64,000 bases of DNA, from the NCBI GenBank assembly GCA_026397015.1, contig JAPLVR010000003.1, positions 1-64,000 of the forward strand, given 5' to 3'. The first letter of the stretch is position 1. The number at the start of each line of letters is the position of its first letter. The stretch comes from Candidatus Iainarchaeum sp. (GTDB lineage: Archaea; Iainarchaeota; Iainarchaeia; Iainarchaeales; JAAZKV01). Shown one piece after another: positions 19,728-64,000 of this stretch. The translations under genes were made by a program, and so were the position numbers. The notes under the pieces were generated by a model. That model saw only the letters and a program-made list of their open reading frames with translations, made no database searches and was not told where the DNA came from.

Positions 19728-21851
19728 ATGAAAGTGATTTTTTTGACCGAACACGAACACCACGAAAAAACTGGAAAATCAAGCGATGATTTTGTCGGCA
19801 GGATCCAAAAAAAAATAATTGACAATAAGAAAATGATACTGCTTTTGCTGGTAATTTTTATTCTTGCCTTCAGCATAAGGGCGCATCTTATGCGCTACGA
19901 GTACATATTTGAATTTGATTCGTATTATCACTTAAGGCTCGTTGGAGAACTTATACAGCACGGTCAAATACCTGCGAACGACCCGCTGGCATATTATCAG
20001 TTGGGGGGAGCGAAACCGCCCGGCTTCAGCCTTCTGTGGCCCATTTCATCCGCATTTTATCTGATTATTGGGTTTGGAAAGCCGTTCAGCAAAGATCTGC
20101 TACTTCTTTGCGCAAAGATGCTTCCGGCGCTTTTCGGCGCATTAATTTCGCTTGCGATGTATTGGCTCGGAAAGGAAGTTTACAATAAAAAAGCCGGTGT
20201 TGCAATGGCATTCATTGCCGCAACTGTTCCGGCATTTGTTTACAGAACCATGGCAGGCTTCTTCGAAGAGGATTCGCTTGGATTCCTGTGGATGGTAATC
20301 GGCTTCGTTTTCATGCTGCGCGCAACAAAATCCGAAAAAATAACAAAGCAGAGCATAATCAATTCGGTGCTCGCGGGAATTTTCTTCAGCATGATGGCGC
20401 TGACATGGACCCTTTACCTGCTTGTGCCCCTGATAATAACTCCCTACTTTATTTTCTCGCTGCTTATCCTCGCGACAAGGGAGTCAAAAGAAAAACTCAC
20501 TGCATTCATAGCGAATTTTGGAATAGGATACGTAATATTCAACATAGCAATATTGTTAATCGGCGGCAACTGGATTCAGAATGGAGTGAGTTATATCGCA
20601 AGGTTCATGCCCGACTTCATAGATCCGCTAATACTTCCTGCAATAATACTGATAGTAATAGGAACGATTTTATTGGCGTACCTGATTGAAAAAATGAAGG
20701 AAGACAACAGGCAAATCATGGGAACGGTTTTCGTTGTGCTGCTCTGGATAATCCTTTTGGGAACAGCCATGATATTCATTTTTGTAGGAGACATTTTAGA
20801 CAGAACTGCAATATCAAGCATGGTCGGCGAGGAGAGCACCGGAAAACAATTCTTCGGGCAGAAATACAATTCGCTCATAATTTTTCCCGCACTCGCATTA
20901 TTGCTCATTCCTGCAGGGATAATTTTTTCACGCAACAGGGAACGCCTGGGTTACGGAACTCTGATTATTTTCTTTTGGGTGCTCATAACTCTGATAATGG
21001 CTTACTATAAATTGAAATTCACATATTCGTTCGGGCTGCCAGTTGCGGCTGCGGCCGGCTTTGTGGTTTATTTTGTGTTTGAAATTATTGAACGCGCCGG
21101 AGCAGAAAAAAAAGTTGAATCAAAAATAATTGTCGTGGCACTGCTCTTCACCCTTCTTTTGAGCGTTGGCGCGGCTGCAATATTCGTCCCCGAATACAGG
21201 CCGACTCTTGACGAAGACCCGAAATGGAAGGAAGCGATAAACTGGATATCCGGAAATACGCCGCAGGACACAAAACTGTTCAACTGGTGGAATCAGGGCC
21301 ACATAATATCTTTCATTACTGGAAGAAAGGTTTCATCAGATAACAGGAATTATTCTGAAGAGGCAAACCGCGCAATGGCAGAATTCATTGTAACAGAAGA
21401 TGTCAATGAGGCATATCAAATCGTCGCAAAGGAAATCGGCGCCGATTATGTTGTCCTTGAATCAAGCATGATGCTGCAGGAAGCACAATTCTATTTTTAC
21501 AGCATAGGAAAGGTTGACACTTCCGATCCGGCGCTACAAAAATATTCTGCCGCCCCGGCAAACACATTCTCCTGTGTGTCTTCAGGCGACAGCATAAGTT
21601 GCCAGGGAAACACATTCTCCGCCCAGGATTTCAACAAGTTCCCTGAAAAATGGAACATGGTGCCGACAACATTCTATAACGGAAAAGAACCGATTTATCT
21701 GTACAAGGAAAACTTAACCCTTATTGCGCTGAACCGCGCAGTAAACAATTCGAACATCGCAAAGGTGTGGTTTAATAGCGATGATACGCGCGACAAATAT
21801 GAAGAAGTATTTTCAAACGGCAGCATAAAAATATTTAAAATAATAAAATAG
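19728..21851 (+). CDS. aglB: oligosaccharyltransferase AglB/STT3 (WWN variant)
   Basis: EFDSYYH, RTMAGFFEED, MVGEE (TIXE-like), LKFT, NWWNQGH, GADYV; multi-TM plus soluble C-domain. Confidence 0.93.
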   Translation: MKVIFLTEHEHHEKTGKSSDDFVGRIQKKIIDNKKMILLLLVIFILAFSIRAHLMRYEYIFEFDSYYHLRLVGELIQHGQIPANDPLAYYQLGGAKPPGFSLLWPISSAFYLIIGFGKPFSKDLLLLCAKMLPALFGALISLAMYWLGKEVYNKKAGVAMAFIAATVPAFVYRTMAGFFEEDSLGFLWMVIGFVFMLRATKSEKITKQSIINSVLAGIFFSMMALTWTLYLLVPLIITPYFIFSLLILATRESKEKLTAFIANFGIGYVIFNIAILLIGGNWIQNGVSYIARFMPDFIDPLILPAIILIVIGTILLAYLIEKMKEDNRQIMGTVFVVLLWIILLGTAMIFIFVGDILDRTAISSMVGEESTGKQFFGQKYNSLIIFPALALLLIPAGIIFSRNRERLGYGTLIIFFWVLITLIMAYYKLKFTYSFGLPVAAAAGFVVYFVFEIIERAGAEKKVESKIIVVALLFTLLLSVGAAAIFVPEYRPTLDEDPKWKEAINWISGNTPQDTKLFNWWNQGHIISFITGRKVSSDNRNYSEEANRAMAEFIVTEDVNEAYQIVAKEIGADYVVLESSMMLQEAQFYFYSIGKVDTSDPALQKYSAAPANTFSCVSSGDSISCQGNTFSAQDFNKFPEKWNMVPTTFYNGKEPIYLYKENLTLIALNRAVNNSNIAKVWFNSDDTRDKYEEVFSNGSIKIFKIIK

Positions 21852-21904: not shown

Positions 21905-22606
21905 ATGGCAAACCTAGTAAAGCACGAACAAATTGGAATCACAGGTGCTGTAAAGTTCAAAAAAATAAGAAAGTATTTTAAGGAAAATGAATCTGCCGCA
22001 TTGACCATTCTTGATGTTGGAGGGACAACCATAAGCGCAAATGCCATAAAAGAAATATTCCCTAATGCAAAAATAACAATCGCGAACATAAACAAAAAGG
22101 ATTTGGGGCACGGAAAAGAGTTCGAAAGAACTCTTGTTGACTGTAACTCATTAGGCAAGATCAACAAAAAATTTGATATAATTTTCGCAAACGACCTAAT
22201 AGAACACCTCGAAGATCCCGACAAATTTGTTGAAGAGGCTGGCAAAGTTTGCAAAAATACACTTGTAATAACCACTCCCAATCTTGCCGCTTGGTACAAC
22301 CGCATATTCCTCCTTTTAGGTTTTGACCTTGCAAATTATAGTTCAAGCAGAGTTAGAGCTGGAAACCTGTTATTGGCAGAAATTGGCGCCCCGGGGCATA
22401 AAAGCGTTTTCACAAACAGAAGCTTAAAAAGGCTCCTTGAAAGACACGGTTTTGTTGTTAGAAAAATGGATTCATTCAGCTACCAAATGGATGGCCAGCT
22501 TGATGGAAGGGGCGGAATGCTACGAAGGACAATAAACTTTCTGCTTCCCAAAGGAATGCAGGAAGGAATAATCTGTTACGCAAAAAAAATTAAAGCTTTG
22601 AAATAA
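21905..22606 (+). CDS. class I SAM-dependent methyltransferase
   Basis: ILDVGG, DLIEHLEDP and TTPN. Confidence 0.85.
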   Translation: MANLVKHEQIGITGAVKFKKIRKYFKENESAALTILDVGGTTISANAIKEIFPNAKITIANINKKDLGHGKEFERTLVDCNSLGKINKKFDIIFANDLIEHLEDPDKFVEEAGKVCKNTLVITTPNLAAWYNRIFLLLGFDLANYSSSRVRAGNLLLAEIGAPGHKSVFTNRSLKRLLERHGFVVRKMDSFSYQMDGQLDGRGGMLRRTINFLLPKGMQEGIICYAKKIKALK

Positions 22607-22655
22607 TTAATGTTGTACCAATCCGTTTAAAACCAAAAAACCGGGAATCATCGTT

Positions 22656-23693
22656 ATGGACTCGCACATCACATATGTTTTAGTGCCGATCGTCTCGTTT
22701 CTTACAGCATACATTATAACTCCAAAAATAATTTCGATAATGAAAAAAAGAGGCATTGTTGGAAGGGATATGAATAAATTTGGCAAAGTAATGGTTGCCG
22801 AACTCGGCGGCGTCGGAATTTTCCTCGGATTCTCATTCGGCGCAATAACTGCAATATTTCTTTCAACATACCTTGAGAGCACACTCAATCTCACAGTATT
22901 CATGGCGGGAATGCTTACAATAATCCTTGTTGGTTTTATCGGAACTTTAGATGACATAATCGGATGGAAAAAGGGGATAAGGCAGTGGCAGCACGCCCTG
23001 TTTCCGATAGCTGCAGCGCTTCCACTAATGGCGGTGCAAATAAACGCAAACCCCATATCGATTCCTTTTTTAGGGCTGATGCCGCGGGAATTCCTGCTTC
23101 CGTTCGGGGCAGTAAGTTTCGGATTATTTTATTCGCTGATTCTTGTCCCAATCGGCGTTACCGGCGCCGCCAACGCCTCAAATATCCTAGCCGGATTAAA
23201 CGGGCTTGAAGCTGGCTTGGGCATTTTAATACTTGGGACGCTTGGGATTATTGCATTCCTTACGGGCAAAATTGAAGCGACAATTTTTGCGCTTTCAATG
23301 ATCGGCACATTGGCGGCATTTCTAATTTACAACTGGCATCCCGCCAAAATATTTGGGGGGGATGGCTTAACACTGACAACGGGAACGAGCATTGCGGTTG
23401 TTTCAATTCTCGGTGACATGGAAAAAATAGGCGTTGCGCTGATGGCATTGTTTTTTGTAGAACTTTATTTGAAGACCAAAACAAAATTTCAGGGAGAATC
23501 GTTTGGCGTGCCAAAAAAAAGCGGAATTCTCGAGGCACCTAAAAAAAAGCAAAGTTTGACACATTATTTCATGGCAATAAAGCCTGCAACCGAAAAACAG
23601 GTCGTCGTAAAAATGCTTCTGGCACAGGCGGCGATTTGCCTCGCAATACTTCTGCTGTTCTATTTAAATTCGATAAGAGTAATAATGATTTAA
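22656..23693 (+). CDS. aglH: UDP-GlcNAc:polyprenyl-phosphate GlcNAc-1-P transferase (AglH/Alg7)
   Basis: GRDMNK, AELGG, GTLDD, NASNILAGLNGLEAG, NWHPAKIFGGD. Confidence 0.9.
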   Translation: MDSHITYVLVPIVSFLTAYIITPKIISIMKKRGIVGRDMNKFGKVMVAELGGVGIFLGFSFGAITAIFLSTYLESTLNLTVFMAGMLTIILVGFIGTLDDIIGWKKGIRQWQHALFPIAAALPLMAVQINANPISIPFLGLMPREFLLPFGAVSFGLFYSLILVPIGVTGAANASNILAGLNGLEAGLGILILGTLGIIAFLTGKIEATIFALSMIGTLAAFLIYNWHPAKIFGGDGLTLTTGTSIAVVSILGDMEKIGVALMALFFVELYLKTKTKFQGESFGVPKKSGILEAPKKKQSLTHYFMAIKPATEKQVVVKMLLAQAAICLAILLLFYLNSIRVIMI

Positions 23694-23721
23694 CAAGTAG
23701 TTTAGCAACTGAATTAAACGG

Positions 23722-24180
23722 GTGAAGAAATTGGTCAAAATTTGTTTGGTGGCGAGCGCAGGCGGGCACCTTAAGGAAATCCTTCAGCTAAAAAAATATT
23801 ATTCGAAAAAAAAACATTATTTTGTCACATTCAAAAGGGCCGATGGTGTAAGCCTCGCGAAAAAAGAGGCGGTGCATTTTGTGGAATGCCCGTCCAGAAA
23901 ACCGGCAAAATTTTTACTAAATTTTTCCCAAAGCCTGAAAATATTTCTAAAAGAAAAACCGGACATTATTATTTCAACCGGCGCGGATGCCGCGCTGGCA
24001 ACCTGCTGGATTGCAAAAACATTTGGAAAAAAAGTAATTTATATTGAGAGTTTTTGCAGACCGACAAAGCCAAGCGTCACAGGAAAGCTTGTTTATCCCA
24101 TAGCGGACCTTTTTATTTATCAATGGAAGGAAGTCGGCAAAAATTACCCAAAAGGAAAATATGGAGGAAGCATTTTTTGA
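23722..24180 (+). CDS. Alg14/PssD/CpsF-like glycosyltransferase subunit
   Basis: ASAGGHL, PDIIISTGA, YIESF and QW. Confidence 0.9.
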   Translation: MKKLVKICLVASAGGHLKEILQLKKYYSKKKHYFVTFKRADGVSLAKKEAVHFVECPSRKPAKFLLNFSQSLKIFLKEKPDIIISTGADAALATCWIAKTFGKKVIYIESFCRPTKPSVTGKLVYPIADLFIYQWKEVGKNYPKGKYGGSIF

Positions 24181-24230
24181 AATTCTGAAAATTTGACAAA
24201 AATACGTTAAATGTGAAAAAAGGTGAAAAA

Positions 24231-24713
24231 ATGATTTTTGTAAGCGTTGGAACGCACGACCAGCAGTTCAACAGATTGCTTAAAGAAATTGACAAACTTG
24301 TTGAAAATAAAAAAATAAGCGAAAGCATTTTTGCACAAACAGGCAACTCAATTTACATTCCAAAAAAATTCAAACACAAAAAATTTCTCGGCCTCGAAGA
24401 ATTCGACAAAAACGTCAAGAAATGCGAGATATTCATAACCCATGCCGGCGAAGGCAACATAGGCACTGGGCTTCAGTATGAAAAAAGAATGATTGTTGTG
24501 CCGCGCCTTAAAAAGTTCGGGGAGCACACAAACGATCACCAGCTCGAACTCGCGGAAGCGATAGGCAAAGAAAAACAGGCGATTGTTTGCAACCCTGAAG
24601 GAATTGAAGCCGCGCTGAAAAAAATAAAAAAATTGAAGCCGAAAAAAACCGAACATGCAAAAAGAATAATCGCATTAATCGAGGAATTTGAAAAAAATAA
24701 TTTCAAAAAATAA
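24231..24713 (+). CDS. Alg13/PssE/CpsG-like glycosyltransferase subunit (GT28 C-domain)
   Basis: IFVSVGT, FNRL, ITHAGEG, VPR..GEHTNDHQ. Confidence 0.9.
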   Translation: MIFVSVGTHDQQFNRLLKEIDKLVENKKISESIFAQTGNSIYIPKKFKHKKFLGLEEFDKNVKKCEIFITHAGEGNIGTGLQYEKRMIVVPRLKKFGEHTNDHQLELAEAIGKEKQAIVCNPEGIEAALKKIKKLKPKKTEHAKRIIALIEEFEKNNFKK

Positions 24714-24738
24714 GCATAGACGGCTATCTGGTGAAAAA

Positions 24739-25632
24739 ATGGAAAAAGTTGAAAAAGGATTGACGTTCATTATTGCGACAAAAAACCAGGGCGCGAATAT
24801 TGAGGATGCTGTCGGCAGGTGTGCAAATCAAAATTATAAAGGAAAAATAGAAATAATTGTGAGCGATGACAACAGCACCGACGGCACACAAAAAATTGTG
24901 GAACGCATAGCCAAAACTAATTCACGCATCAAATATTTTAACACTAAGGGGACTGGCAGAGTGAAAGGGTTGAATTGGGCGATCAGCTCGGCGAAAACAG
25001 AATTCATCTGCCTTTCTGCAGGAGATATTTTTTATGAAAAGGATTTTGCAAAAACAATAATTTCTTATTTTAAAGACAATAAAACAGCTTTCGTCTCGCC
25101 TTTTTCCGAAACAGGAGGCAATGCGACGGTTTGGAGAAGGGAAGTGCTGGACGAATTAAAAGGGTTTGACGAGGAATTCAACGAAAAAGGAACCGGTTTC
25201 AGGGACGATACAGATTTGGCCTTCAGAGCTTTCGACAAAGGATATAACGGAATATTTACTTACAAAACCGCAAAATTCAAACATGAACACTCGCTGCAAA
25301 AAAACGATTTAATAAACAAAATAAAATACGGTTTCGCAAGGCTGAAGATACACCGATTTGATCCGCTGCTTTACAAGAAGCATCCCGAAAGGGCAAAAAA
25401 TTTTTTTGACATAAAAATAGGGTTCATAAGAAACCCATTGAAAGATTTCGAGGCGGCAACAGGACTGTGGAAAGGAAAATTCGATTTTAGTTCACCCCAG
25501 GGTGTTGTGCTGTTGAAAGGAAACTCCTTCCCGAAAAAAATTGCAATAATACCACTCGGGATTTGCTATGTTATTTGTGTAAAAGTTGTAAGGCTTTACG
25601 GCAGCATAAAATATGGAAAGCTTCTGATTTGA
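24739..25632 (+). CDS. GT2 glycosyltransferase
   Basis: DDNSTDGT, GFDEEF, RDDTDL. Confidence 0.88.
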   Translation: MEKVEKGLTFIIATKNQGANIEDAVGRCANQNYKGKIEIIVSDDNSTDGTQKIVERIAKTNSRIKYFNTKGTGRVKGLNWAISSAKTEFICLSAGDIFYEKDFAKTIISYFKDNKTAFVSPFSETGGNATVWRREVLDELKGFDEEFNEKGTGFRDDTDLAFRAFDKGYNGIFTYKTAKFKHEHSLQKNDLINKIKYGFARLKIHRFDPLLYKKHPERAKNFFDIKIGFIRNPLKDFEAATGLWKGKFDFSSPQGVVLLKGNSFPKKIAIIPLGICYVICVKVVRLYGSIKYGKLLI

Positions 25633-25708
25633 TTGCCGCTACCAATGTACCATCACTGTTTATAAATAAGCCAATTATAATTCTATTAAATTTCATTCAA
25701 GCGAAAAA

Positions 25709-27166
25709 ATGGTGAAAAAAATGCGAATTTTGCTGTTGAACCCGCCGTTCATAAAAAAATTTTCAAGAACTTCCAGAAGCCCTGGCGTTTCAAAAGGGGG
25801 TTGTGTTTATTACCCGCTCTGGTTGGCTTATGCCGCCGGTGCGCTTGAAAAAACAAACCATGAAGTGCTTCTGCTGGATGCTTCGGGCGAAAACTTGCCA
25901 TTGGAAGAAACGCTCTCAAAAATAAAAAAATTCGACCCAGAAATGATAATAGTCGACACCGTAACGCCTTCTTTTGAAAATGACTCGAAAATTGTTGCGC
26001 AAATAAAAAAGGAAATTTCAAATGCGCTTGTTGTTTTTGTGGGCGACCACGTGAGCGTGCTTCCGAAAGAAAGCCTGAAAAAAAGCAAAGCAGATGCCGT
26101 TGCAATAAGGGAATATGATTTGATTCTGCTTGAACTGGCCGATGCGCTGGAAAACAACAAATCGCTTTCAAATGTAAAGGGAATCGCCTGGCGCAAGGGA
26201 AAAAAAATTATTCTGAACAAAGAAGCGGAACCGCCCAATGAAAAGCAGCTGGATTGGCTGCCGTTCGTTTCGCAGATTTACGCAAAACACCTGAAATTGA
26301 AAAATTATTTTTATCCCTCAGTACAATACCCTCAAGTCACAATTCTAACGGGAAGAGGCTGCCCGAACAGGTGCGCATTCTGCAAATGGCCGCAAACTTT
26401 CAGCAGCCACAATTACAGGAAAAGAAGCGTAAAAAGCGTTGTTGATGAATTCGAGTGGATTCAAAAAAATCTGCCGCAGATAAAGGAAGTGATGATTGAG
26501 GACGACACGCTTACGCAGGATAAACAAAGGACAATTGAATTGTGCAAAGCGCTTATTGAGAAAAAAATAAGGCTTCCCTGGAGCTGCAACGCGCGAGCGG
26601 ATGTTCCGCTTGAAGTTTTGCAGTGGATGAAAAAGGCAAAATGCAGGCTGATGTGCGTCGGAATTGAAAGCGCTGACCAGGAAATATTGAACAACATTCA
26701 CAAAGGAACAACCCCGCAGGGAATAAGGCAGTTCATGAAGGACTCAAAGAAAGCTGACATTTTGGTTCACGGCTGCTTCATGTTCGGAAACCAGGGAGAA
26801 ACAAAGGAAACAATAAGGAAAACCGCCGCATTCGCCCGCGAGTTAAACCCGGATACCGCACAATTCTTTCCTGTGATGGTTTATCCAGGAACGGAAACCT
26901 ACAAATGGGCAAAAAAGAAGGGCTACCTGAAGGCAAAAAAATGGGGCGACTGGCTAAATGAGGATGGAACACACAGGACGCTCCTAAGCAGACCGGGCTT
27001 GAGCGCGGAAAACCTCAATGAGCTTACCGACGAGTCGAGAAGGGCATTTTATGCACGGCCGAAATATGTTGTAGCAAAAACTGTTCAGGCAATGAAAAAT
27101 CCAAAAGAAATTCCGAGGCTGGCGAAAGGAAGCATCACATTTGCAAAGTACTTGTTAAAAAAATGA
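25709..27166 (+). CDS. B12-binding radical SAM protein (HpnJ-like)
   Basis: LLNPP, YYPLWLAY, GRGCPNRCAFC and GIES. Confidence 0.92.
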   Translation: MVKKMRILLLNPPFIKKFSRTSRSPGVSKGGCVYYPLWLAYAAGALEKTNHEVLLLDASGENLPLEETLSKIKKFDPEMIIVDTVTPSFENDSKIVAQIKKEISNALVVFVGDHVSVLPKESLKKSKADAVAIREYDLILLELADALENNKSLSNVKGIAWRKGKKIILNKEAEPPNEKQLDWLPFVSQIYAKHLKLKNYFYPSVQYPQVTILTGRGCPNRCAFCKWPQTFSSHNYRKRSVKSVVDEFEWIQKNLPQIKEVMIEDDTLTQDKQRTIELCKALIEKKIRLPWSCNARADVPLEVLQWMKKAKCRLMCVGIESADQEILNNIHKGTTPQGIRQFMKDSKKADILVHGCFMFGNQGETKETIRKTAAFARELNPDTAQFFPVMVYPGTETYKWAKKKGYLKAKKWGDWLNEDGTHRTLLSRPGLSAENLNELTDESRRAFYARPKYVVAKTVQAMKNPKEIPRLAKGSITFAKYLLKK

Positions 27167-27179
27167 TTCGGGGGAAAAA

Positions 27180-28142
27180 ATGCTCGCTTCAATAATAATT
27201 CCTGCGCATAATTCTGAAAAAACAATTTCAGGTTGCCTGAATTCACTCATAAACCAGCAAACGGAAAAAAAGTTTGAGATAATAATTGTTGATGACGGCA
27301 GTATCGATAGCACAGCAAAAGAAATAAAAAAAATAAAAAACACAAAAATAAAATATCTTTGCCAAAAAAACTCTGGACCGGCGAAAGCGAGAAACCTTGG
27401 CGCGAAAAAATCAAATGGGAACATAATTTTGTTCATCGATTCCGATTGCGTTGCCGAAAAAAACTGGCTTGAAGAAATGCTCAAGCCATTCAGCGACAAA
27501 AATGTTGCCGCAGTGCAAGGTGCTTACAAAACAAAACAAAAAGAATTTGCTGCGCAATTCTCGCAAATAGAAATAGAAGAAAGGTATGAAAGGATGGAAA
27601 AAGCAAAAAAATTGGATTGGGTTGGAAGCTATAGCGCGGCGTACAGAGCGGAAGTTTTCAGAAAAATGAACGGGTTTGATGAAAGTTTTCCAATTGCATC
27701 GGGTGAGGACCCTGAACTGAGTTACAAAATCAGCGAAAAAGGATACAAAATTTCGCTCAACTCGAAGGCAATCGTTTATCATTCCCACCCAAAAACGCTT
27801 TTACAATACCTAAAAACAAAATTTTTCAGGGCATATTACAGGCCAAGAATGTACTCCAAACACAAGGCAAAAATGATTAGCGATTCGTACACGCCGCAAA
27901 CCCTGAAACTACAAATCCTCTGCTTTTACGCATTGATTTTAGGAATCGTGTTAATTCCTTTTTCAGGCATCTGGGCATACATTGTGCTCTCATCAATCCT
28001 CGCGCACCTTTTGCTCGGAACAAATTTTTTTATTTTTGCGCTTAAAAAAAACTTTTTGGTCGCGGCTGCGAGCCCGACAGTTTTATTTCTGCGAAGTGTG
28101 GTCTTCGGAATTGGGCTTGTCTGGGGGAAATTGAATGGTTGA
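27180..28142 (+). CDS. GT2 glycosyltransferase
   Basis: IIPAHN, DDGS, NSGPAKARN, FIDSD, GEDPEL. Confidence 0.92.
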   Translation: MLASIIIPAHNSEKTISGCLNSLINQQTEKKFEIIIVDDGSIDSTAKEIKKIKNTKIKYLCQKNSGPAKARNLGAKKSNGNIILFIDSDCVAEKNWLEEMLKPFSDKNVAAVQGAYKTKQKEFAAQFSQIEIEERYERMEKAKKLDWVGSYSAAYRAEVFRKMNGFDESFPIASGEDPELSYKISEKGYKISLNSKAIVYHSHPKTLLQYLKTKFFRAYYRPRMYSKHKAKMISDSYTPQTLKLQILCFYALILGIVLIPFSGIWAYIVLSSILAHLLLGTNFFIFALKKNFLVAAASPTVLFLRSVVFGIGLVWGKLNG

Positions 28143-29247
28143 AAAAGAAATCTCTAAGCAGGGAATTGTGAAATATATCTCTACAATTGCCGCAAGAAAA
28201 GCCGCCCGGCTGACAATAAAAGCCATTCCGCTGAAAAAAACTGAATTTGAAAAAGCAAAAGTAAAAAAAATTCTTTTCATTCAGCTCTACGGAATCGGCG
28301 ATTACCTAATGTCGACGCCGGCAATCAAGGCAATCTCGGACGAATTTCCGAAAGCAAAAAAAATTTTGCTGTGCAAAAAGCACTCCTTGGAAATTGCAAA
28401 ACTTAATCCCTGCATTGACACAGCAACCGCCGACATTAAAAAAATCAAAAAAATTGATCTCGCCATTTCGCTTAATGACTCGGCTGAATCCTCAATAATT
28501 GCCTTTAAATTAAAACCAAAATACCTAATCGGATTTTTGAAGGGCAAAACTGTCGGGGCAAATTTTGAAATAAAAGGGTTTTCCGCAAACGAAAAAAATT
28601 CTTGGGTCGAAAATTATCTGCTAATCCCAAAGGCGATGAAAATTAACGCAAAAAACCAAAAATACGTCTTGGATTTGAAAAAAATCAAAAGAAGCGACAA
28701 AATTTTCTCAATCCTGAAAAAAAACAAAATTTCAACTTTTGTCGTACTTAACCCGAATACAAGAGAGGGCGCCGAAGCGAAAAACTGGGGCAACAAAAAT
28801 TATGCCGCACTTGCAGAAAAATTGATTGAAAGAGGACACAAAGTCGTTTTCTGCGGAGGAAAAGACGAAGACGGGAGCAAAAAAACAATTGAGCTCATTC
28901 AAAACAAAAAAGTAAAAGAAAAAATAATTGATTTAACCGGAAAGGTCAGTCTTGACGAAACGGCATGCCTTTTTTCGAAGGTGAGGCTTTTTGTCGGGAA
29001 TGACACCGGCCTGATGCACATTTCGCTTGCAGTAGGATGCTCAACAATAGGAATCTTTGGTCCGACTAATTCAAAAATACTTTTTCCAAAAAATGGGATT
29101 TACAAAAAAGCATTTGCGTTTCAGATAAAAAATGGCGAGTGGCCATGCTATTTTAGAGGGCCTTTCAATGTGAAGCAGAATCAAAAATATATGGATTCGA
29201 TAGCGCCCTCAAAGGTTTTCAAAAAAGCGACGGAGCTGATGAAATGA
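28135..29247 (+). CDS. GT9 (heptosyltransferase-like) glycosyltransferase
   Basis: GIGDYLMSTP, KNW, DLTGK.SL, GNDTGLMH, FGPT. Confidence 0.9.
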   Translation: MVEKEISKQGIVKYISTIAARKAARLTIKAIPLKKTEFEKAKVKKILFIQLYGIGDYLMSTPAIKAISDEFPKAKKILLCKKHSLEIAKLNPCIDTATADIKKIKKIDLAISLNDSAESSIIAFKLKPKYLIGFLKGKTVGANFEIKGFSANEKNSWVENYLLIPKAMKINAKNQKYVLDLKKIKRSDKIFSILKKNKISTFVVLNPNTREGAEAKNWGNKNYAALAEKLIERGHKVVFCGGKDEDGSKKTIELIQNKKVKEKIIDLTGKVSLDETACLFSKVRLFVGNDTGLMHISLAVGCSTIGIFGPTNSKILFPKNGIYKKAFAFQIKNGEWPCYFRGPFNVKQNQKYMDSIAPSKVFKKATELMK

Positions 29248-30380
29248 ATATTTTGTACATCGCAGAGGACATTTCGCTTCCGGGATTTCACGGCGGAAGC
29301 ACGCATGTGCAGGAAACCATAAACGCATTGGTAGAACTCGGACACAAAGTTTTTGTAATCTGCAAAAAGAACAAGGGTCAGAAAAAAAAAGAAATGGTGA
29401 AAGGAATTAGTTACTGTCGAATAAATGCGCCCAGTGGTGGCTTTCAAAAAAACATTTGGTTTTTCTTCAATCTTGGAAAAATAACAGAAGAAATTCTCAA
29501 CAAAGAAAGAATCGAACTTGTGTGGCAAAGGAACAGGATTTTTGGCTGCCAGGGAATAATCGCGGGCAAAAAAGCAGGAGCAAAAACCATTCTTGAGATG
29601 AACGAGCCTATAGAGACTTCTGAAGAAAGCATCGCCTTCCCACTGATAAAGAAATGGTTCCTTCACTGCGTTAAATACGCAGACAAAGTTACCGGAACGC
29701 ACGAATGCATGTTCAAATTCATCCCAAAAGAGAAGCGGCTTCTTTCCTGGCACGGCTCCAACCCAAAGCTGTTCAACTCTCACAAAAAGGATCCTACAAT
29801 ATCAAAGAAGTTCAGCCTAAAAGGCAAGACCTTGTTTTACAGCGGAAGCTTCCAAGAATGGCACTGCTTGAAAAATGCGCTCATTGCCTTTGAAAAAGTG
29901 CAAGAGAAATATCCAGAAGCGGCTTTCCTGCTAGCCGGAGAAGGGCCGCAGAAAAAGGAACTAGAAAAACTTGCGAAAAAACTAAAAGTAAAGAATATAC
30001 ATTTCCTTGGAAATGTGCAATTCGAGCGCCTGCCATACCATATCAATGCCTCTGATGTCTGCCTCGCGCTTTTCGACAGGAATTACGGCGCGATAAAGAA
30101 ATGCGGGTACTTCTATTCCCCAATAAAGGTGCATGATTACAAGGCATGCGGAAAGTCTGTGATTGCGAGCGGAATTGGAAACCTTAAAGGGCTGGTAAAA
30201 GAAGGAAAGAATGGGTTCCTTGTGGATGAAAAAAGCATTCCTGAAATAACATTCTCACTTGCTAATGCGCTTTCGCTTTCGGCCAAGAACCAAAAGCTGA
30301 TCGCAAAAAGGAACATTCTTGAAATAAAGGAAACATACAATTGGAAAGCAATAACAAAGAGAATACTGGAGAAATTGTGA
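29244..30380 (+). CDS. GT4 glycosyltransferase
   Basis: GGSTHV, YSGSF, SPIKVHDYKACG. Confidence 0.9.
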   Translation: MNILYIAEDISLPGFHGGSTHVQETINALVELGHKVFVICKKNKGQKKKEMVKGISYCRINAPSGGFQKNIWFFFNLGKITEEILNKERIELVWQRNRIFGCQGIIAGKKAGAKTILEMNEPIETSEESIAFPLIKKWFLHCVKYADKVTGTHECMFKFIPKEKRLLSWHGSNPKLFNSHKKDPTISKKFSLKGKTLFYSGSFQEWHCLKNALIAFEKVQEKYPEAAFLLAGEGPQKKELEKLAKKLKVKNIHFLGNVQFERLPYHINASDVCLALFDRNYGAIKKCGYFYSPIKVHDYKACGKSVIASGIGNLKGLVKEGKNGFLVDEKSIPEITFSLANALSLSAKNQKLIAKRNILEIKETYNWKAITKRILEKL

Positions 30381-57587: not shown

Positions 57588-59174
57588 GTGAGCGGTTTGA
57601 AGGACAAACAATCACAGTTGCCAAGAAAATTGTGGACCTGGCTGCCTGCAATGGCAATAATCTTTGCAGTCATTTTTATACTTCTGCAGCTGCAAAAACC
57701 CATAGCCGCGGACGAATTCTGGTATTTTGACAGTGCAAAATCTCTTCTACAAACAGGAAAGCCGCTTTTGCAATTCTGCTCAAACAGCGTGCCAGTTCTC
57801 TTTGAAGGCCATCCGCCGACATACATCTACTATCTCTCAATTTTTTTTGCACTCTTACCGGAACAGCTGATAAGATTTTCCGGAATTCCGGTCTTTCTGG
57901 CGCTCATATTTTTAACATACCTTGTCAGCCTGAAAGTCTTTTCGGAAAAAAGGAAAGCGATTTTTGTCACGGCACTTTATGCAATAAACCCGCTTGCAAT
58001 ACAGGGCGCGCTGCTGCTCGACATAGACAACACAATTCTTGCAATCGCAATAACTTTTTTCGTGCTTATTTTATTACACATTCAGGAGCAAAAAAATTTT
58101 AGGACAAGGATTGTTCTTGCCTCAGCGTGTTTCGCCTTAATTTTATGGGCAAAAACAACTGTGATTTTTATAATTTCAGTCGGGCTCGTTGCGTACGCAG
58201 TTCTTTTCGACAGGAAAAAAATAAAGGAAAATTTTGTGATGGCTCTCGGCGGGATAATTTTGTTTTGTGCAAGCTGGGCAGTATTTTGCGCCATCAGCGG
58301 AATTGAATTCTTAAGCGTTTTCGGATACATCGCAAGCACATTTGCAAGCAAATCAACATTGAGCGTCTCCGACAAAATTGTAACAATTTTATACTCAGGA
58401 TTAAAACAAAATATCCTGTGGATAACGATTCCGCTTTCGATTTTTTTCTTCTTGGGCGCAAAGAACACGAAAAACAAAAATCTGAAGCTTTTCGCGCTCG
58501 TGTCAATAATTGCTTTCATCCAGTACCTCCTTTCAATACCTTCAGGATACAGATTTCCAAAGTATATGGCGGCCTTTTTGCCGATGATAATAATTGTTGC
58601 GGGGGATGAAATAATAAAAATAGATTTCGAAAAGGCAAAAAAATTAATTCCAATTATTCTTTTTCCGGGCGCAGTATTTTTCGCGCTCCTAAGAGATCCT
58701 CTGGTGCACGTCAAAACATTTGCAGACGCCGTTTTTGTTGCCATAATAAACACACTTGCTGCCATGCCTGCGCTTTTTGTAAAAAGAAAAAAAGAGGTGC
58801 TGCTACTGCTTTACATCGGCACGTGTATCTATATAAACATTTTCCAATTGACCACTGACAGTTCAACGCTTTACAATTACAGCGAAAGGGGCCTTGTCGA
58901 CACAGCGCAATATTTGAAAGCTATGCTGCCAGCCGACTCAAACATATACACCTCCGGAAAAGAAATTGCATATTATTCCGGAACGAACAAGTATTGCTTC
59001 AAAACGCAAAACTTCACTGAGGAAATAGAGAAAAATTGCGTAAAAATGATTGTGTTGAAAAGGTATTGGGAGGAAAAAAATAATCCCGAGCTTGAGGAAA
59101 TTACAAAAAGCAATTTCTCGTTCCAAAAAGAATTCGGAGATTACAGCATTTATTCGACAAATGCGTGCAAATAA
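57588..59174 (+). CDS. GT-C (GT39/ArnT-like) membrane glycosyltransferase
   Basis: ADE, HPP, NPL, KY motifs; multi-TM. Confidence 0.8.
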   Translation: MSGLKDKQSQLPRKLWTWLPAMAIIFAVIFILLQLQKPIAADEFWYFDSAKSLLQTGKPLLQFCSNSVPVLFEGHPPTYIYYLSIFFALLPEQLIRFSGIPVFLALIFLTYLVSLKVFSEKRKAIFVTALYAINPLAIQGALLLDIDNTILAIAITFFVLILLHIQEQKNFRTRIVLASACFALILWAKTTVIFIISVGLVAYAVLFDRKKIKENFVMALGGIILFCASWAVFCAISGIEFLSVFGYIASTFASKSTLSVSDKIVTILYSGLKQNILWITIPLSIFFFLGAKNTKNKNLKLFALVSIIAFIQYLLSIPSGYRFPKYMAAFLPMIIIVAGDEIIKIDFEKAKKLIPIILFPGAVFFALLRDPLVHVKTFADAVFVAIINTLAAMPALFVKRKKEVLLLLYIGTCIYINIFQLTTDSSTLYNYSERGLVDTAQYLKAMLPADSNIYTSGKEIAYYSGTNKYCFKTQNFTEEIEKNCVKMIVLKRYWEEKNNPELEEITKSNFSFQKEFGDYSIYSTNACK

Positions 59175-59647: not shown

Positions 59648-60469
59648 GTGAAAAAATACAAAAATATAGAAGGAAGTTATTACGAGGAGGCGCACGGCGG
59701 CCGAAACGGGGTGCAGCAGTTTTTCTACAAATCAAGGGAAGATTATTTCATAGAATTCATGGGATTGAGAGGAAACGAGAAAATAGCGGACATTGGATGC
59801 GGATCTGGAACGTTTACACGCGCACTTGCAAAGAAATATCCAAATATAGAAATGACAGGAATTGACATATCGGAAGACGCAGTTACGTTCGCGAAAAAAA
59901 CCGCAAAATTTGAAAAAATCAAAAACGCGAATTTCACGCAAGGCGCTTTGGAAAAAATTCCGGCAAAAGACAATTCTTTTGATGCAATAATCGCATCCCA
60001 TGTAATTGAACACATCCCGAGCCCGAAAAAGGCATTAATTGAAATTAGAAAGAAGCTTCGCAGCGGCGGAACGCTTTATTTAACAACTCCAAATTACATC
60101 TCACTCTGGCCGCTCGCCGAACTTGTTTTTGACAAAGCAATGGCGAAAAAAGGTTATAGCCTGGATGAACAACACATCTCACGCTTTAATTTTTTGACGA
60201 TAAAAAAATCTGTTGAAGGGGCGGGGTTTGAAATTGAAAAAATCAAAACACTTTACATATTTTCTCTTGAAGGGGAAATTCTTTCGCAAACGCTCGGCAA
60301 GATTTTATTTTGGTTTGATAAAAAACTTGACTTTTTGCCTTTTGGAATGATAATTTACATCAAAGCAAAAAAAAAACCAGTGAAAAAATTTAATTCTAAT
60401 AAATTCAAATCAAATATTCGAAACTCAACTAAAAAATCTCAATCTCAAAATTCAGCCAAAAAATCTTAA
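59648..60469 (+). CDS. class I methyltransferase
   Basis: DIGCGSG, HVIEHI, TTPN. Confidence 0.88.
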   Translation: MKKYKNIEGSYYEEAHGGRNGVQQFFYKSREDYFIEFMGLRGNEKIADIGCGSGTFTRALAKKYPNIEMTGIDISEDAVTFAKKTAKFEKIKNANFTQGALEKIPAKDNSFDAIIASHVIEHIPSPKKALIEIRKKLRSGGTLYLTTPNYISLWPLAELVFDKAMAKKGYSLDEQHISRFNFLTIKKSVEGAGFEIEKIKTLYIFSLEGEILSQTLGKILFWFDKKLDFLPFGMIIYIKAKKKPVKKFNSNKFKSNIRNSTKKSQSQNSAKKS

Positions 60470-61147
60470 TCTCAAAAGAGTGAATGGAAATTTTACTATT
60501 TCCATCTTTCTTAATTTCGATTTGCCCGAAGTCCTGTCGGCGAAAAATATAGGCACTTCTTTTATTTTCGCGCCTTTTTTGTGACAATGATAAATCAGCT
60601 CTTCCAAAAAAGAATAGCTCGTTGATTTTATCTTTGAAAAATCAATTTTTTTTAGAAGTGATATTTTGTAACAGCGAAAACCGGAAGTAAGATCATTTGC
60701 AGGAACTCCCAAAATAAGGCGCGCCAAAAAATTTGCGCCGCCGCTGATTATTTTTCTTGAAATAGCCCAGTTAGTTCCCCCGCCGGCAACATAGCGAGAG
60801 CCTATCACCACACCAGCGCCAGCTTGGATTTCACGTATAAAATCTTTTGAATAATCAAAATCATGGGAAAGGTCAGCATCCATCGAAAAAACAACATCCG
60901 CGTTCAGCTCAAATGCTTTTTTGAATCCCGCAAGATAGGCGGAACCAAGCCCCATTTTGCACGGCCTGGAAACCAAAAAAACTTTCCTGAATTTTTTTGC
61001 AGCCTTGGCGGTGCCATCCGGCGAATTGTCATCTACAACTATTGCCTTAAATTCGACGCCCTTTATTTTCTGGGAAAGGATTTTCGGAAGAAGACGTTCA
61101 AGATTTTTCTTTTCATTATAAGTCGGAATCACTACTGCAGCAATCAA
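60452..61147 (-). CDS. polyprenol-phosphate mannose synthase (DPM1-like GT2)
   Basis: IPTYNE, DDNSPDGT, MDADLSH, DLTSGFR. Confidence 0.93.
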   Translation of the reverse strand: MIAAVVIPTYNEKKNLERLLPKILSQKIKGVEFKAIVVDDNSPDGTAKAAKKFRKVFLVSRPCKMGLGSAYLAGFKKAFELNADVVFSMDADLSHDFDYSKDFIREIQAGAGVVIGSRYVAGGGTNWAISRKIISGGANFLARLILGVPANDLTSGFRCYKISLLKKIDFSKIKSTSYSFLEELIYHCHKKGAKIKEVPIFFADRTSGKSKLRKMEIVKFPFTLLRLRFFG

Positions 61148-62619: not shown

Positions 62620-64000
62620 ATGGGAAAAACACTGAAAGCGCCGATTTTTTTATTTTTAATACTTATTTTTTTAATCCCGGGAATTTTTGCCGGCAGCGCA
62701 TCCATAAACACTTTTGATTTGAATGTCGCTTCTGCGACAACACTCTCGGGAGTCAAAGCAACTTTGACATATTTGAACACGGGCGATTTTAATGCGCTCT
62801 GCTTCAACACATCGGATAGCAGTTCGGGCAGCACATGCCAAGAAGGAGATTTTGGGGCTTTTCCAAGTTTAACTTTGGATTACTCTCTGATAAGCGGGAT
62901 GTCTTCTAATGCACAAGAAGGAAGCCACACAATTTACGCATTTGTAAAACAGGATGACGGCGGTTATTCAGCATCGACATCCAAAGGGCTGGTAATTGAT
63001 GCAAGCGCCCCGACATATACTGTTTTTCCGGCAAATAATTCAGACCATAATGTAGGCACATTAACTTTTGATATTAATTTTACCGATTCGTCTACCCCTG
63101 TTGTTTCGCTGATAAAATTGAACGGAACCACAACAATAACTGACGGATCCTCATTGAGCCCCAGTGACGGAACGCACACAATTACAATTGATGCAAACGA
63201 CGCGCTCGGAAACGCCATGGCAACAGCTACAATTACTTTCAGAGTAGATACTAACGCACCGACATCCGCGAGCGTCAGTTCGGCAAATTCTTCTTCATAC
63301 ACAAATAGCAGCACACCCACAATTACCGCGAGCGCCACGGACACAGTTTCGGGAGTCGACGGCGGGCAAATAGCGCTTTCGTGCAAGCCGACCGGCGCAT
63401 GGTATGTAAGGTCGTATGCAACGACGATTACTGATTTCAACATAGTTTTAAGCAGCTACGACTGCAACACGAGCGATGGAAATAAATTGATTTATGTTAA
63501 GTTCAAAGATGCCGCTGGCAACTGGACAACAAGTTCTGTTATTACGAACGCACTTATTGACAGGACTGTGCCGAGCGCGCCAAGCGGATTAAGTGCGACT
63601 GTTGGAAACGCACAGGTTGAATTGAGTTGGAGCGCTCCGGCTGCGGACAGCCTTCCAGGATCGGGAAACGCAGGATATAAAGTGTATAAAGACAATGCTC
63701 TTTACGCCACAGTTACTAGCGCAACAACCAAAACAGTTACAGGACTAACGAACGGCACAAGTTATGGTTTCAAAGTTAGAACTTATGATAATGCGGGAAA
63801 CTTGAGCGAAGCAACCGCGGATGTAAATGCGACGCCTTCGGCTGGGCCTGTTGCGAACGCAACCATCACAGTGAAAAGAGGAACTGCGGCGCCGAGTTAT
63901 GTGAAAAACGGTGACGCTTTAACAGTAACATGCTCTTTCAGCTACGACGTTAATTCCGCAAGAATTTATTACAAATACAGAAATCCTGACCAGGCACAGG
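62620..64000 (+). CDS. secreted Ig-like/fibronectin-III surface protein, partial (runs off the window end)
   Basis: Not in the ORF track; hand translation is open for 460 codons: signal peptide MGKTLKAPIFLFLILIFLIPGIFA, Ig-like DxxAP/DAAGN repeats, FN3 (PSAPSGLSAT...LSW...GLTNGTSY.FKV). Confidence 0.9.
   Translation, partial: MGKTLKAPIFLFLILIFLIPGIFAGSASINTFDLNVASATTLSGVKATLTYLNTGDFNALCFNTSDSSSGSTCQEGDFGAFPSLTLDYSLISGMSSNAQEGSHTIYAFVKQDDGGYSASTSKGLVIDASAPTYTVFPANNSDHNVGTLTFDINFTDSSTPVVSLIKLNGTTTITDGSSLSPSDGTHTITIDANDALGNAMATATITFRVDTNAPTSASVSSANSSSYTNSSTPTITASATDTVSGVDGGQIALSCKPTGAWYVRSYATTITDFNIVLSSYDCNTSDGNKLIYVKFKDAAGNWTTSSVITNALIDRTVPSAPSGLSATVGNAQVELSWSAPAADSLPGSGNAGYKVYKDNALYATVTSATTKTVTGLTNGTSYGFKVRTYDNAGNLSEATADVNATPSAGPVANATITVKRGTAAPSYVKNGDALTVTCSFSYDVNSARIYYKYRNPDQAQ

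Follow-up and report, generated by a model that had tools for sequence, protein, structure and literature searches.

In the oligosaccharyltransferase (OST) AglB encoded at positions 19728..21851 (+ strand) of a 64,000-nucleotide stretch of Candidatus Iainarchaeum sp. (contig JAPLVR010000003.1, positions 1 to 64,000; the whole stretch is called the window below), both halves of the predicted pocket for the Ser/Thr at position +2 of the sequon are changed. In the surface proteins of the same genome and of three others sampled in its family, Asp-x-Asn (D-x-N) and not Asn-x-Ser/Thr (N-x-S/T) is over-represented, and this excess is specific in register, avoids Pro and is confined to ectodomains. 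Among related AglBs, the two pocket changes recur together, and a basic residue, K379, aligns with R328 of Campylobacter PglB. A family-wide switch to a sequon driven by Asp at position -2, with D-x-N as the acceptor site of AglB, appears reasonably probable. The fuller account, in which a DPANN family exchanged Asn-x-Ser/Thr for Asp-x-Asn as its N-glycosylation code, with an AglB already carrying K379 losing the pocket repeatedly as a unit and the surface proteome being rewritten, is in our estimate evenly poised.

The window corresponds to C5:1-64000 of a 0.9-Mb assembly (G000; six contigs, 85% complete). By domain, fold and catalytic residues, the predicted product of aglB (an open reading frame, ORF, of 707 amino acids) is a member of the STT3/AglB/PglB family. 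Pfam STT3 (PF02516, the N-terminal domain) matches with 100.3 bits (cut-off 24.5) and AglB_core-like with 27.7 bits (cut-off 27). With the full-length AlphaFold2 (AF2) model (pLDDT 87.8, pTM 0.86), Foldseek places human and yeast STT3, Archaeoglobus fulgidus AglB (AfAglB) and C. lari PglB on top, matching along the entire protein (TM 0.59-0.65, E-values 1e-15 to 1e-18); the best matches in both sequence (phmmer) and fold are eukaryotic STT3s. For comparison with bacteria, PglB genes were found by scanning a genome collection with back-translated WWDYGYP, and 25 were aligned (C. coli numbering). The alignment by hhalign of these 25 PglBs with 40 AglBs of the clade has a probability of 99.2% over 605 columns, at 17% identity. 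Closer relatives were collected by a word-indexed search (234 proteins with E <= 1e-5 among 8000 scored candidates), and the best 120 were aligned by MAFFT.

In these alignments, the catalytic residues are in place. D64 (19917..19919, + as are all AglB features below), the first catalytic or metal Asp (in FEFDSYYH), is kept in 119 of the 120 relatives and falls on the invariant D54 of PglB. In the second acidic motif, E180-E181-D182 (20265..20273), the equivalent of DxD/DxE, residues E180 and D182 fall on D152 and D154 of PglB (hhalign), and the motif falls on the D-N-E of STT3A (phmmer). E368 (20829..20831), the catalytic Glu of the TIXE/SVSE-type motif (here MVGEE), is invariant in 120/120 and falls on E316, itself invariant in the 25 PglBs. 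The basic residue K430 (21015..21017), conserved in at least 90% of the clade alignment, falls on the invariant R372 of PglB, which we take to be the Arg holding the phosphate of the lipid-linked donor.

The two elements of the canonical +2 pocket are replaced. At 21285..21299 (bases tgg tgg aat cag ggc), WWNQG (W520 W521 N522 Q523 G524, with the aat codon of N522 at 21291-21293) stands in place of WWDxG; it lies over the WWDYG of human STT3A and STT3B and of yeast STT3 in phmmer and over the WWDYG of PglB in hhalign. At the position of the DK/MI motif (21468..21479, M581-M-L-Q584), M581 falls on M569 of PglB and Q584 on I572, which is the second of the residues that define the motif, so that Gln occupies the place of the Lys or Ile. 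In the translation, ESSMMLQEAQFYFYS comes after GADYVVL and contains no DxxK. Both WWD and the Ile of the MI motif are invariant in the 25 PglBs. The prediction from which this work started, made from the letters of the window alone, had described the WWNQG and its AAT codon, the missing DxxK, the Lys codon at 20862-20864 in FGQK, and intact metal-type motifs (FDSYYH, FEED, GEE), all of which agree with the bases, translations and alignments.

A sequencing error at 21291 (a GAT read as AAT) is ruled out as the origin of WWN: two runs of another study give contigs that span 21205-21355 and 21169-21377 without any differing letter, WWNQG is also encoded by a genome of the same genus (G036), and WWN occurs in 24 other relatives. 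The window AglB is the only STT3 homolog detected in its genome. Neither Pfam STT3 nor a search with the AglB protein found a second one, canonical or not, in the 85% that is complete, and the unassembled 15% could hold one. One STT3 was found in G036 as well; of the other genomes analyzed, one (G031) carries two AglB copies and the rest one each.

The proteome was scanned for all 400 a-x-b residue pairs, with expectations from each protein's own composition; the first 40 residues were skipped and remainders of less than 50-60 residues dropped. ORFs were called with a script of our own (at least 70 amino acids, longest first, at most 20% overlap; 907 in G000) and sorted by hydropathy, again by own script, into secreted-like (104), cytoplasmic (557) and membrane or other (246) classes. 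All genomes besides G000 were sampled in part, 252-400 kb each (195 kb for the Thermogladius control). In the secreted class of G000, D-x-N ranks first of the 400 pairs (299 vs. 136.6 expected, z 13.9, with z 4.2 for the runner-up), and it is first also in the membrane class (281 vs. 147.2, z 11.0). Among cytoplasmic proteins the count agrees with expectation (228 vs. 236.6). The ratios for N-x-S and N-x-T in the secreted class are 1.10 and 0.96. The excess is widely spread: 36 of the 54 surface proteins with at least one expected site are above expectation (median observed/expected 2.07), 18 of them with Poisson p<0.01. D-x-N is likewise first in the three other genomes of the family, whether with WWN (G036, 330 kb, z 8.2), with WWN-E (G031, 276 kb, z 9.0), or with WWD and no pocket Lys (G100, 327 kb, z 14.0). 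With the three richest proteins removed, the ratio in the four family genomes is still 1.58-1.86 (z 4.5-12.4).

Up to 54 D-x-N occur in one surface protein of 1507 amino acids. In the window, the N-terminal part of a D-x-N-rich type-I surface protein is encoded at 62620..63999 (+); it has 926 amino acids in full and continues to contig position 65400. The D-x-N excess claimed earlier for this protein is real, with 18 sites vs. 4.0 expected, all 18 within the predicted ectodomain and none in the tail; its N-x-S/T are somewhat numerous too, 21 vs. 14.5. Outside the window, type-IV-pilin-like N-termini (QGTIEYVVLLAIIVV) are found on large D-x-N-rich proteins of G000 (C1:27589-29589, C1:35751-38201, C5:327862-330012 and C5:339035-341083). 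Such large pilin-like proteins contain 10-14 D-x-N each, with about 4 expected.

The contribution of position +2 can be separated from that of position -2. In G000, D-x-N-x-S/T is at 2.97 and D-x-N followed by any other residue at +2 is at 2.08, with N-x-S/T without Asp at -2 at 0.96-0.99. Once the five richest proteins are taken out, the ratios in the four family genomes are 1.84-2.65 for DxNxS/T and 1.36-1.64 for D-x-N without Ser/Thr; N-x-S/T without Asp shows no enrichment there (0.97-1.08). Whatever the third residue of WWx, Ser/Thr at +2 is still favored 1.3- to 1.6-fold. Of the D-x-N code with a relaxed +2 position put forward in the original prediction, the over-representation of D-x-N, and not of N-x-S/T, stands; the relaxation at +2 would be partial.

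The signal has a sharp register. When six genomes are pooled, the ratio for Asp and Asn separated by one residue is 2.15, vs. 0.75 with no residue between them, 0.94 with two and 1.06 with three, and patches rich in Asp and Asn are ruled out by this control as its source. Related pairs are not enriched (N-x-D 0.91, E-x-N 0.86, D-x-Q 0.94, D-x-D 0.92). With E-x-N at 0.72-0.86 in surface proteins, there is no sign of Glu at -2, as far as the proteome serves as a proxy. No flanking motif was found (every position other than those of D and N stays below 2.5-fold), and sites with look-alike flanks make up 4-19% in the four family genomes, the same as for a T-x-T control. Loops of the EF-hand, dockerin or cadherin type that bind Ca2+ were ruled out in the family genomes, with no G/D where expected and with N-x-D and D-x-D at the values just given.

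Proline is depleted around the surface sites. In 1501 pooled surface D-x-N, Pro is at 0.36x in position x (p 3e-8) and 0.54x at N+1 (p 1e-4), vs. 0.70x and 1.22x (not significant) in 614 cytoplasmic sites. As chance alone would give about half of the surface D-x-N, these values fit an almost total absence of Pro from the sites in excess. Around the Asn of surface sites, charged residues are depleted, and Ser and Thr at +2 are at 1.45x and 1.29x. Across 10 predicted type-I proteins, 105 D-x-N fall in the ectodomains (25.1 expected) and 17 in the tails (9.8 expected); 14 of those 17 belong to one protein with a doubtful topology call. In a protein of 955 amino acids, D-x-N lie in residues 1-650, with two only beyond the membrane anchor. 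The surface sites are also conserved: between G000 and G036 orthologs, 61/93 (0.66) are kept vs. 0.47 expected from the conservation of single residues, and in cytoplasmic proteins 27/55 (0.49) vs. 0.50.

Outside the clade, the scan gives other results. In a metagenome-assembled genome (MAG) of the crenarchaeon Thermogladius, N-x-T is on top (54 vs. 23, z 6.6), N-x-S/T without Asp at -2 is at 1.86, and D-x-N is at 0.8-1.0. In Sulfurovum sp. CS9, a bacterium with PglB (400 kb), nothing is enriched and D-x-N is at 0.82. The scan therefore recovers the canonical sequon in a genome that should use it, and a D-x-N excess common to secreted proteins at large is ruled out by these two samples. G032 (family f13, 252 kb) and G014 (family f9, 400 kb), two relatives whose pocket is intact (WWDEGHW and Lys), showed an initial D-x-N excess. 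It was traced to two to five proteins, mostly repeats, and look-alike flanks amount to 56% in G032 and 26% in G014 (14% and 9% in their controls). With the three richest proteins removed, D-x-N is at 0.99 in G032 and 1.13 in G014; with five removed, no significant D-x-N excess is left, and N-x-S/T without Asp is at 1.31 (p 0.003) and 1.19 (p 0.004). An interim reading, that D-x-N is clade-wide and independent of the pocket, was dropped after these two steps, the excess in G032 and G014 being mostly driven by repeats. G032 encodes two giant surface proteins (C3:1-10341 and C3:18739-24474, both on the - strand; 3447 and 1911 amino acids). The longer one has LamG-like repeats (a label given by eye) with a conserved W-D-T-N-A-G-F-F-D-G, and its D-x-N excess follows from the repeats. 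In G014, D-L-N-I-x-G recurs in a repeat protein that looks FG-GAP-like by eye.

The signature thus shifts from N-x-S/T to D-x-N where the pocket Lys and the Trp after GH are lost, and not with the Asp-to-Asn replacement itself, because G100 still has WWD and yet shows the same D-x-N signature. The claim that the WWN change underlies the D-x-N code has to be abandoned on this point. The survey of pockets against sequon enrichment that had been suggested bears out a part of the expectation in six genomes: D-x-N goes with the loss of the pocket Lys and not with WWN, and one protein cluster of G014, described below, is an exception.

The candidate reader of Asp at -2 is K379 (FGQK-YN; codon aaa, 20862..20864), within MVGEESTGKQFFGQKYN. 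The match by eye of FGQK with the FMQR331 of PglB holds in the profile-profile alignment, at the level of sequence, with K379 on R328 (posterior ~0.6); R328 is invariant in the 25 PglBs. For the Asp at -2, a salt bridge with R331 of the C. lari enzyme (R328 in C. jejuni) has been proposed (PMC4894442). A gain of K379 coupled to WWN is ruled out: the Lys is invariant in 120/120 of the best relatives (as are G367, E368 and E369), including 58 with WWD and a pocket Lys or Arg. From its distribution, K379 is ancestral to the clade and the window protein did not acquire it, contrary to the gain of -2 recognition first proposed. Class-level outgroups of the phylum retain this Lys. A wider alignment was made from a search of representatives (1951 matches at E <= 1e-3; of the 150 best listed, 95 new ones of at least 560 amino acids, with 3 anchors). 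In it, the motif VGEE..G..F..K-Y-N spans a large clade, and distant canonical AglBs with WWDYGYW have neither the Lys nor K-Y-N. A second basic residue of external loop 5, R359 (20802..20804), is typical of AglBs with a degenerate pocket: it is Arg in 47 of the 48 sequences lacking W526, vs. T, S or Q in the 72 that have it. R359 could contribute to the reading of Asp at -2.

Some of the listed AglB relatives bear the source names Diapherotrites or Iainarchaeum. In the best 120 of the 234 relatives, 76 have Asp as the third residue of the WWx block, 25 have Asn, 14 Gly and 5 Ser, and position 584 is Lys in 47 and Arg in 11. Lys or Arg at 584 occurs in none of the 44 sequences without the Asp and in 58 of the 76 with it. 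On a FastTree phylogeny built without the trait columns, the WWx residue changes at least 13 times, 9 of them between Asp and non-Asp, and Lys/Arg at 584 changes at least 12 times. Among eight phylogenetically independent pairs, Lys/Arg tracks the Asp in a median of five, opposes it in none and is the same in three (sign test, median p 0.06). Because of the 0/44 count and of this pattern on the tree, the pocket Asp and the Lys/Arg appear to have been lost jointly and repeatedly, with the WWN of the window as one case. The relatives do not uniformly have WWD: the change belongs to the whole family and not to the window gene alone, whose WWN is one of at least nine independent losses of the Asp.

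Other departures were seen in this part of the tree. In the wider alignment, the WWD block is still more degenerate, and in some sequences the first Trp is missing; in P0130, P0136, P0140 and P0146 it reads N-D-W-G, N-N-W-G, N-S-W-G or N-Q-W-G, with both the first Trp and the Asp gone. In a large subclade (38-41 of 120; P0006-P0033 and others, loci L005-L017, L029 and L031), G-F-F-E-E-D-S is replaced by G-A-Q-G-D-N-S. The residue at the position of PglB D152 is thereby removed and that at D154 becomes Asn, which bears on metal binding. The second AglB paralog of G031 (C1:102845-104863, - strand; L087; 672 amino acids) has WWELGH, with Glu for Asp, and F-F-I-R-S-F-G, with Arg at the position of K379. 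In a genome with WWG (G010:C1:96014-98107, L031), the AglB match contains one in-frame TAA that a pseudogene, a sequencing error or recoding could explain.

Directly downstream of aglB, at 21905..30380 (+), ORFs and Pfam matches define a glycan-assembly cluster with a methyltransferase, a glycosyltransferase (GT) of family GT4 (AglH-like), a GT2, a B12-binding radical SAM protein, a second GT2, a GT9 and a GT1. From its gene content, aglB heads a cluster with the usual look of N-glycan assembly. A further GT2 is predicted near the surface-protein gene (60452-61147, - strand). A second GT-C glycosyltransferase, of the PMT_2 family (57588-59174, +; 528 amino acids; PF13231, 29 bits), could glycosylate another acceptor.

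Campylobacter PglB needs Ser/Thr at +2, accepts Asp or Glu at -2, and disfavors Pro at x and +1; the sites of the window family are likewise poor in Pro. PglB (C. lari 3RCE/5OGL; C. jejuni and C. coli) is, like the window AglB, a single-subunit OST with a basic residue 11-12 positions past the catalytic Glu of loop 5 (R328/R331 vs. K379). It differs in keeping WWD and the Ile of MI, both lost in the archaeal protein (17% identity), and in the window family D-x-N without Ser/Thr is enriched 1.4- to 2.1-fold, with E-x-N at 0.86. The acceptor site of PglB requires an acidic residue at -2 (PMC4894442), as the proposed D-x-N site also would. AfAglB (AglB-L; 3WAJ/3WAK/5GMY/7E9S) has the same fold (TM 0.61-0.63) and catalytic motifs and is also an archaeal single subunit; however, its WWDYG and a DK-type Lys form the Ser/Thr pocket (PMC3703281), and the window AglB is without them. 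Distant canonical archaeal AglBs lack the K-Y-N motif, and the crenarchaeal control proteome is rich in N-x-T, not in D-x-N. The eukaryotic enzymes (STT3A, STT3B and yeast Stt3) are the best matches in sequence and fold and share a DNxxN segment past the WWD block. They differ by WWDYG and DxxK (PMC3703281), by reading N-x-S/T and by working in a multisubunit complex. The Desulfovibrio PglBs are natural variants that depart from the textbook acceptor preference and in which the loop-5 Arg is not the sole determinant (PMC4894442). In those enzymes the rule at -2 is relaxed and Ser/Thr at +2 is kept, whereas the window family would be the reverse, with Asp at -2 kept or strengthened and +2 relaxed.

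In the mechanism we propose, the gene product would be the single active AglB of the cell, in a DPANN lineage at the level of a family. In a first step, the PglB-like basic K379, present throughout the clade, would let Asp at -2 aid acceptor binding. In a second step, the Ser/Thr pocket would be given up in the family of the window, and probably independently in other lineages, the pocket Lys and the Trp after GH disappearing and the WWD Asp drifting to N, G or S. D-x-N would become the working sequon and would accumulate in the surface proteome. The excess D-x-N sites would then be N-glycosylated, and by AglB, in which basic side chains in external loop 5, presumably K379 and possibly the lineage-specific R359, would recognize the Asp at -2. 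A remnant of the +2 pocket would give only the 1.3- to 1.6-fold Ser/Thr preference.

Several points weigh against such a switch. For all members of the family, we infer every link from the D-x-N motif to a modification from sequences. K379, as judged from the alignments, cannot suffice for D-x-N, because it is equally invariant in intact-pocket relatives without a broad D-x-N signal. According to PMC4894442, the PglB of D. gigas retains the equivalent Arg and yet is relaxed at -2, and the Arg or Lys is therefore not a sufficient determinant. The test of co-loss on independent pairs gives a p of about 0.06. In G014, with an intact pocket, three clustered proteins, two of them with pilin-like N-termini, have a context-free D-x-N excess (12/1.6, 13/3.4 and 12/3.2, observed/expected). 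Against G000, the pilin-like pair reaches just 23% identity, and the third protein gave no match. Pocket loss is thus no strict condition for the D-x-N signature. In the extracellular C-terminal domains of the AglBs themselves, D-x-N is at 0.92 in 76 intact-pocket sequences vs. 1.33 in 67 non-Asp ones, a weak shift in a comparison that ignores relatedness, and N-x-S/T does not fall (1.22 vs. 1.31), with counts inflated by conserved N-x-S columns. The contrast between families compares four with two partly sampled genomes and may reflect a single evolutionary event; the richest proteins were removed post hoc, and gene calls and localization come from crude scripts of our own.

Could D-x-N instead be a structural or metal-binding motif of extracellular domains, such as Asx turns or Ca2+ sites in beta-rich adhesins, with the pocket changes of AglB a separate matter of neutral drift or of an altered +2 preference? 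Confinement to ectodomains and conservation among orthologs would be expected then too, and in the intact-pocket genomes D-x-N is indeed largely born of repeats (56% look-alike flanks vs. 14% in G032; D-L-N-I-x-G in G014). In the family genomes, however, the sites are free of context, with flanks at the 4-19% of the control and no position at 2.5-fold, and they are spread over pilin-like and unrelated surface proteins, 18 of 54 being individually significant. Ca2+ loops would also give an excess of D-x-D, N-x-D and D-x-x-N, which are at 0.92, 0.91 and 0.94. The depletion of Pro at x and N+1 is restricted to surface proteins, and neither the bacterial nor the crenarchaeal control has the excess. 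We regard this explanation as unlikely. About the same small chance is given to another extracytoplasmic modification or another enzyme, for example the PMT_2-family GT-C at 57588-59174, acting on D-x-N while AglB keeps a relaxed or altered specificity of the N-x-S/T type. The window does encode this second GT-C, K379 fails to separate genomes with and without the broad signature, and some preference for Ser/Thr at +2 persists. PMT-family enzymes, however, modify Ser/Thr or lipids and are not known to modify Asn, which is central in the motif; moreover, N-x-S/T without Asp is at 0.97-1.08 in the four family genomes, so that a conserved AglB beside a glycan cluster would be left with no visible sequon. 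The exclusion of Pro at x and +1 fits known OST rules (for Pro at X, PMC8342417).

It is very improbable, in our view, that this WWN enzyme of a reduced genome is inactive or in decay, or that WWN is silent, with the Asn still hydrogen-bonding the +2 hydroxyl in an ordinary N-x-S/T OST. DPANN genomes are reduced, Asn can both accept and donate hydrogen bonds, and D-x-N-x-S/T exceeds D-x-N with other residues in G000 (2.97 vs. 2.08). However, the pocket Lys is needed for viability in yeast STT3 and for activity in P. furiosus AglB (PMC3703281). The ORF is full length, the catalytic residues are invariant, and this AglB is the only STT3 detected in the genome. The pocket Asp and Lys have been lost together at least five times independently with the ORFs intact, and N-x-S/T without Asp is unenriched, unlike in the crenarchaeal control and, modestly, in the intact-pocket relatives. 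A switch of the family to an Asp-driven D-x-N sequon thus remains the reading we prefer.

To our knowledge, N-x-S/T is treated as the universal sequon of N-glycosylation, to which bacteria merely add an acidic residue at -2. In the full-text literature searched, subscription journals not included, no paper was found that describes a D-x-N sequon or deals with glycosylation in Diapherotrites/Iainarchaeota. Variation at the fourth position of WWDXG is mentioned in a 2024 review of archaeal N-glycosylation (PMC11407970). If the switch is real, AglB of this family would be the first natural OST with its main determinant on the N-terminal side of the Asn. The prediction of glycosites would change in archaeal metagenomes, where tools that look for sequons now miss D-x-N sites, and glycoengineering would gain a single-subunit OST with an orthogonal and very short tag. 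The family would also provide a natural test of the separate contributions of the WWD/DK pocket and of the loop-5 basic residue. Its graded natural variants (WWD with Lys, WWD without Lys, WWN, WWG, WWS, WWE and Trp-lacking forms) make the question testable, and they would amount to a series of naturally occurring intermediates that record how OST specificity evolves.

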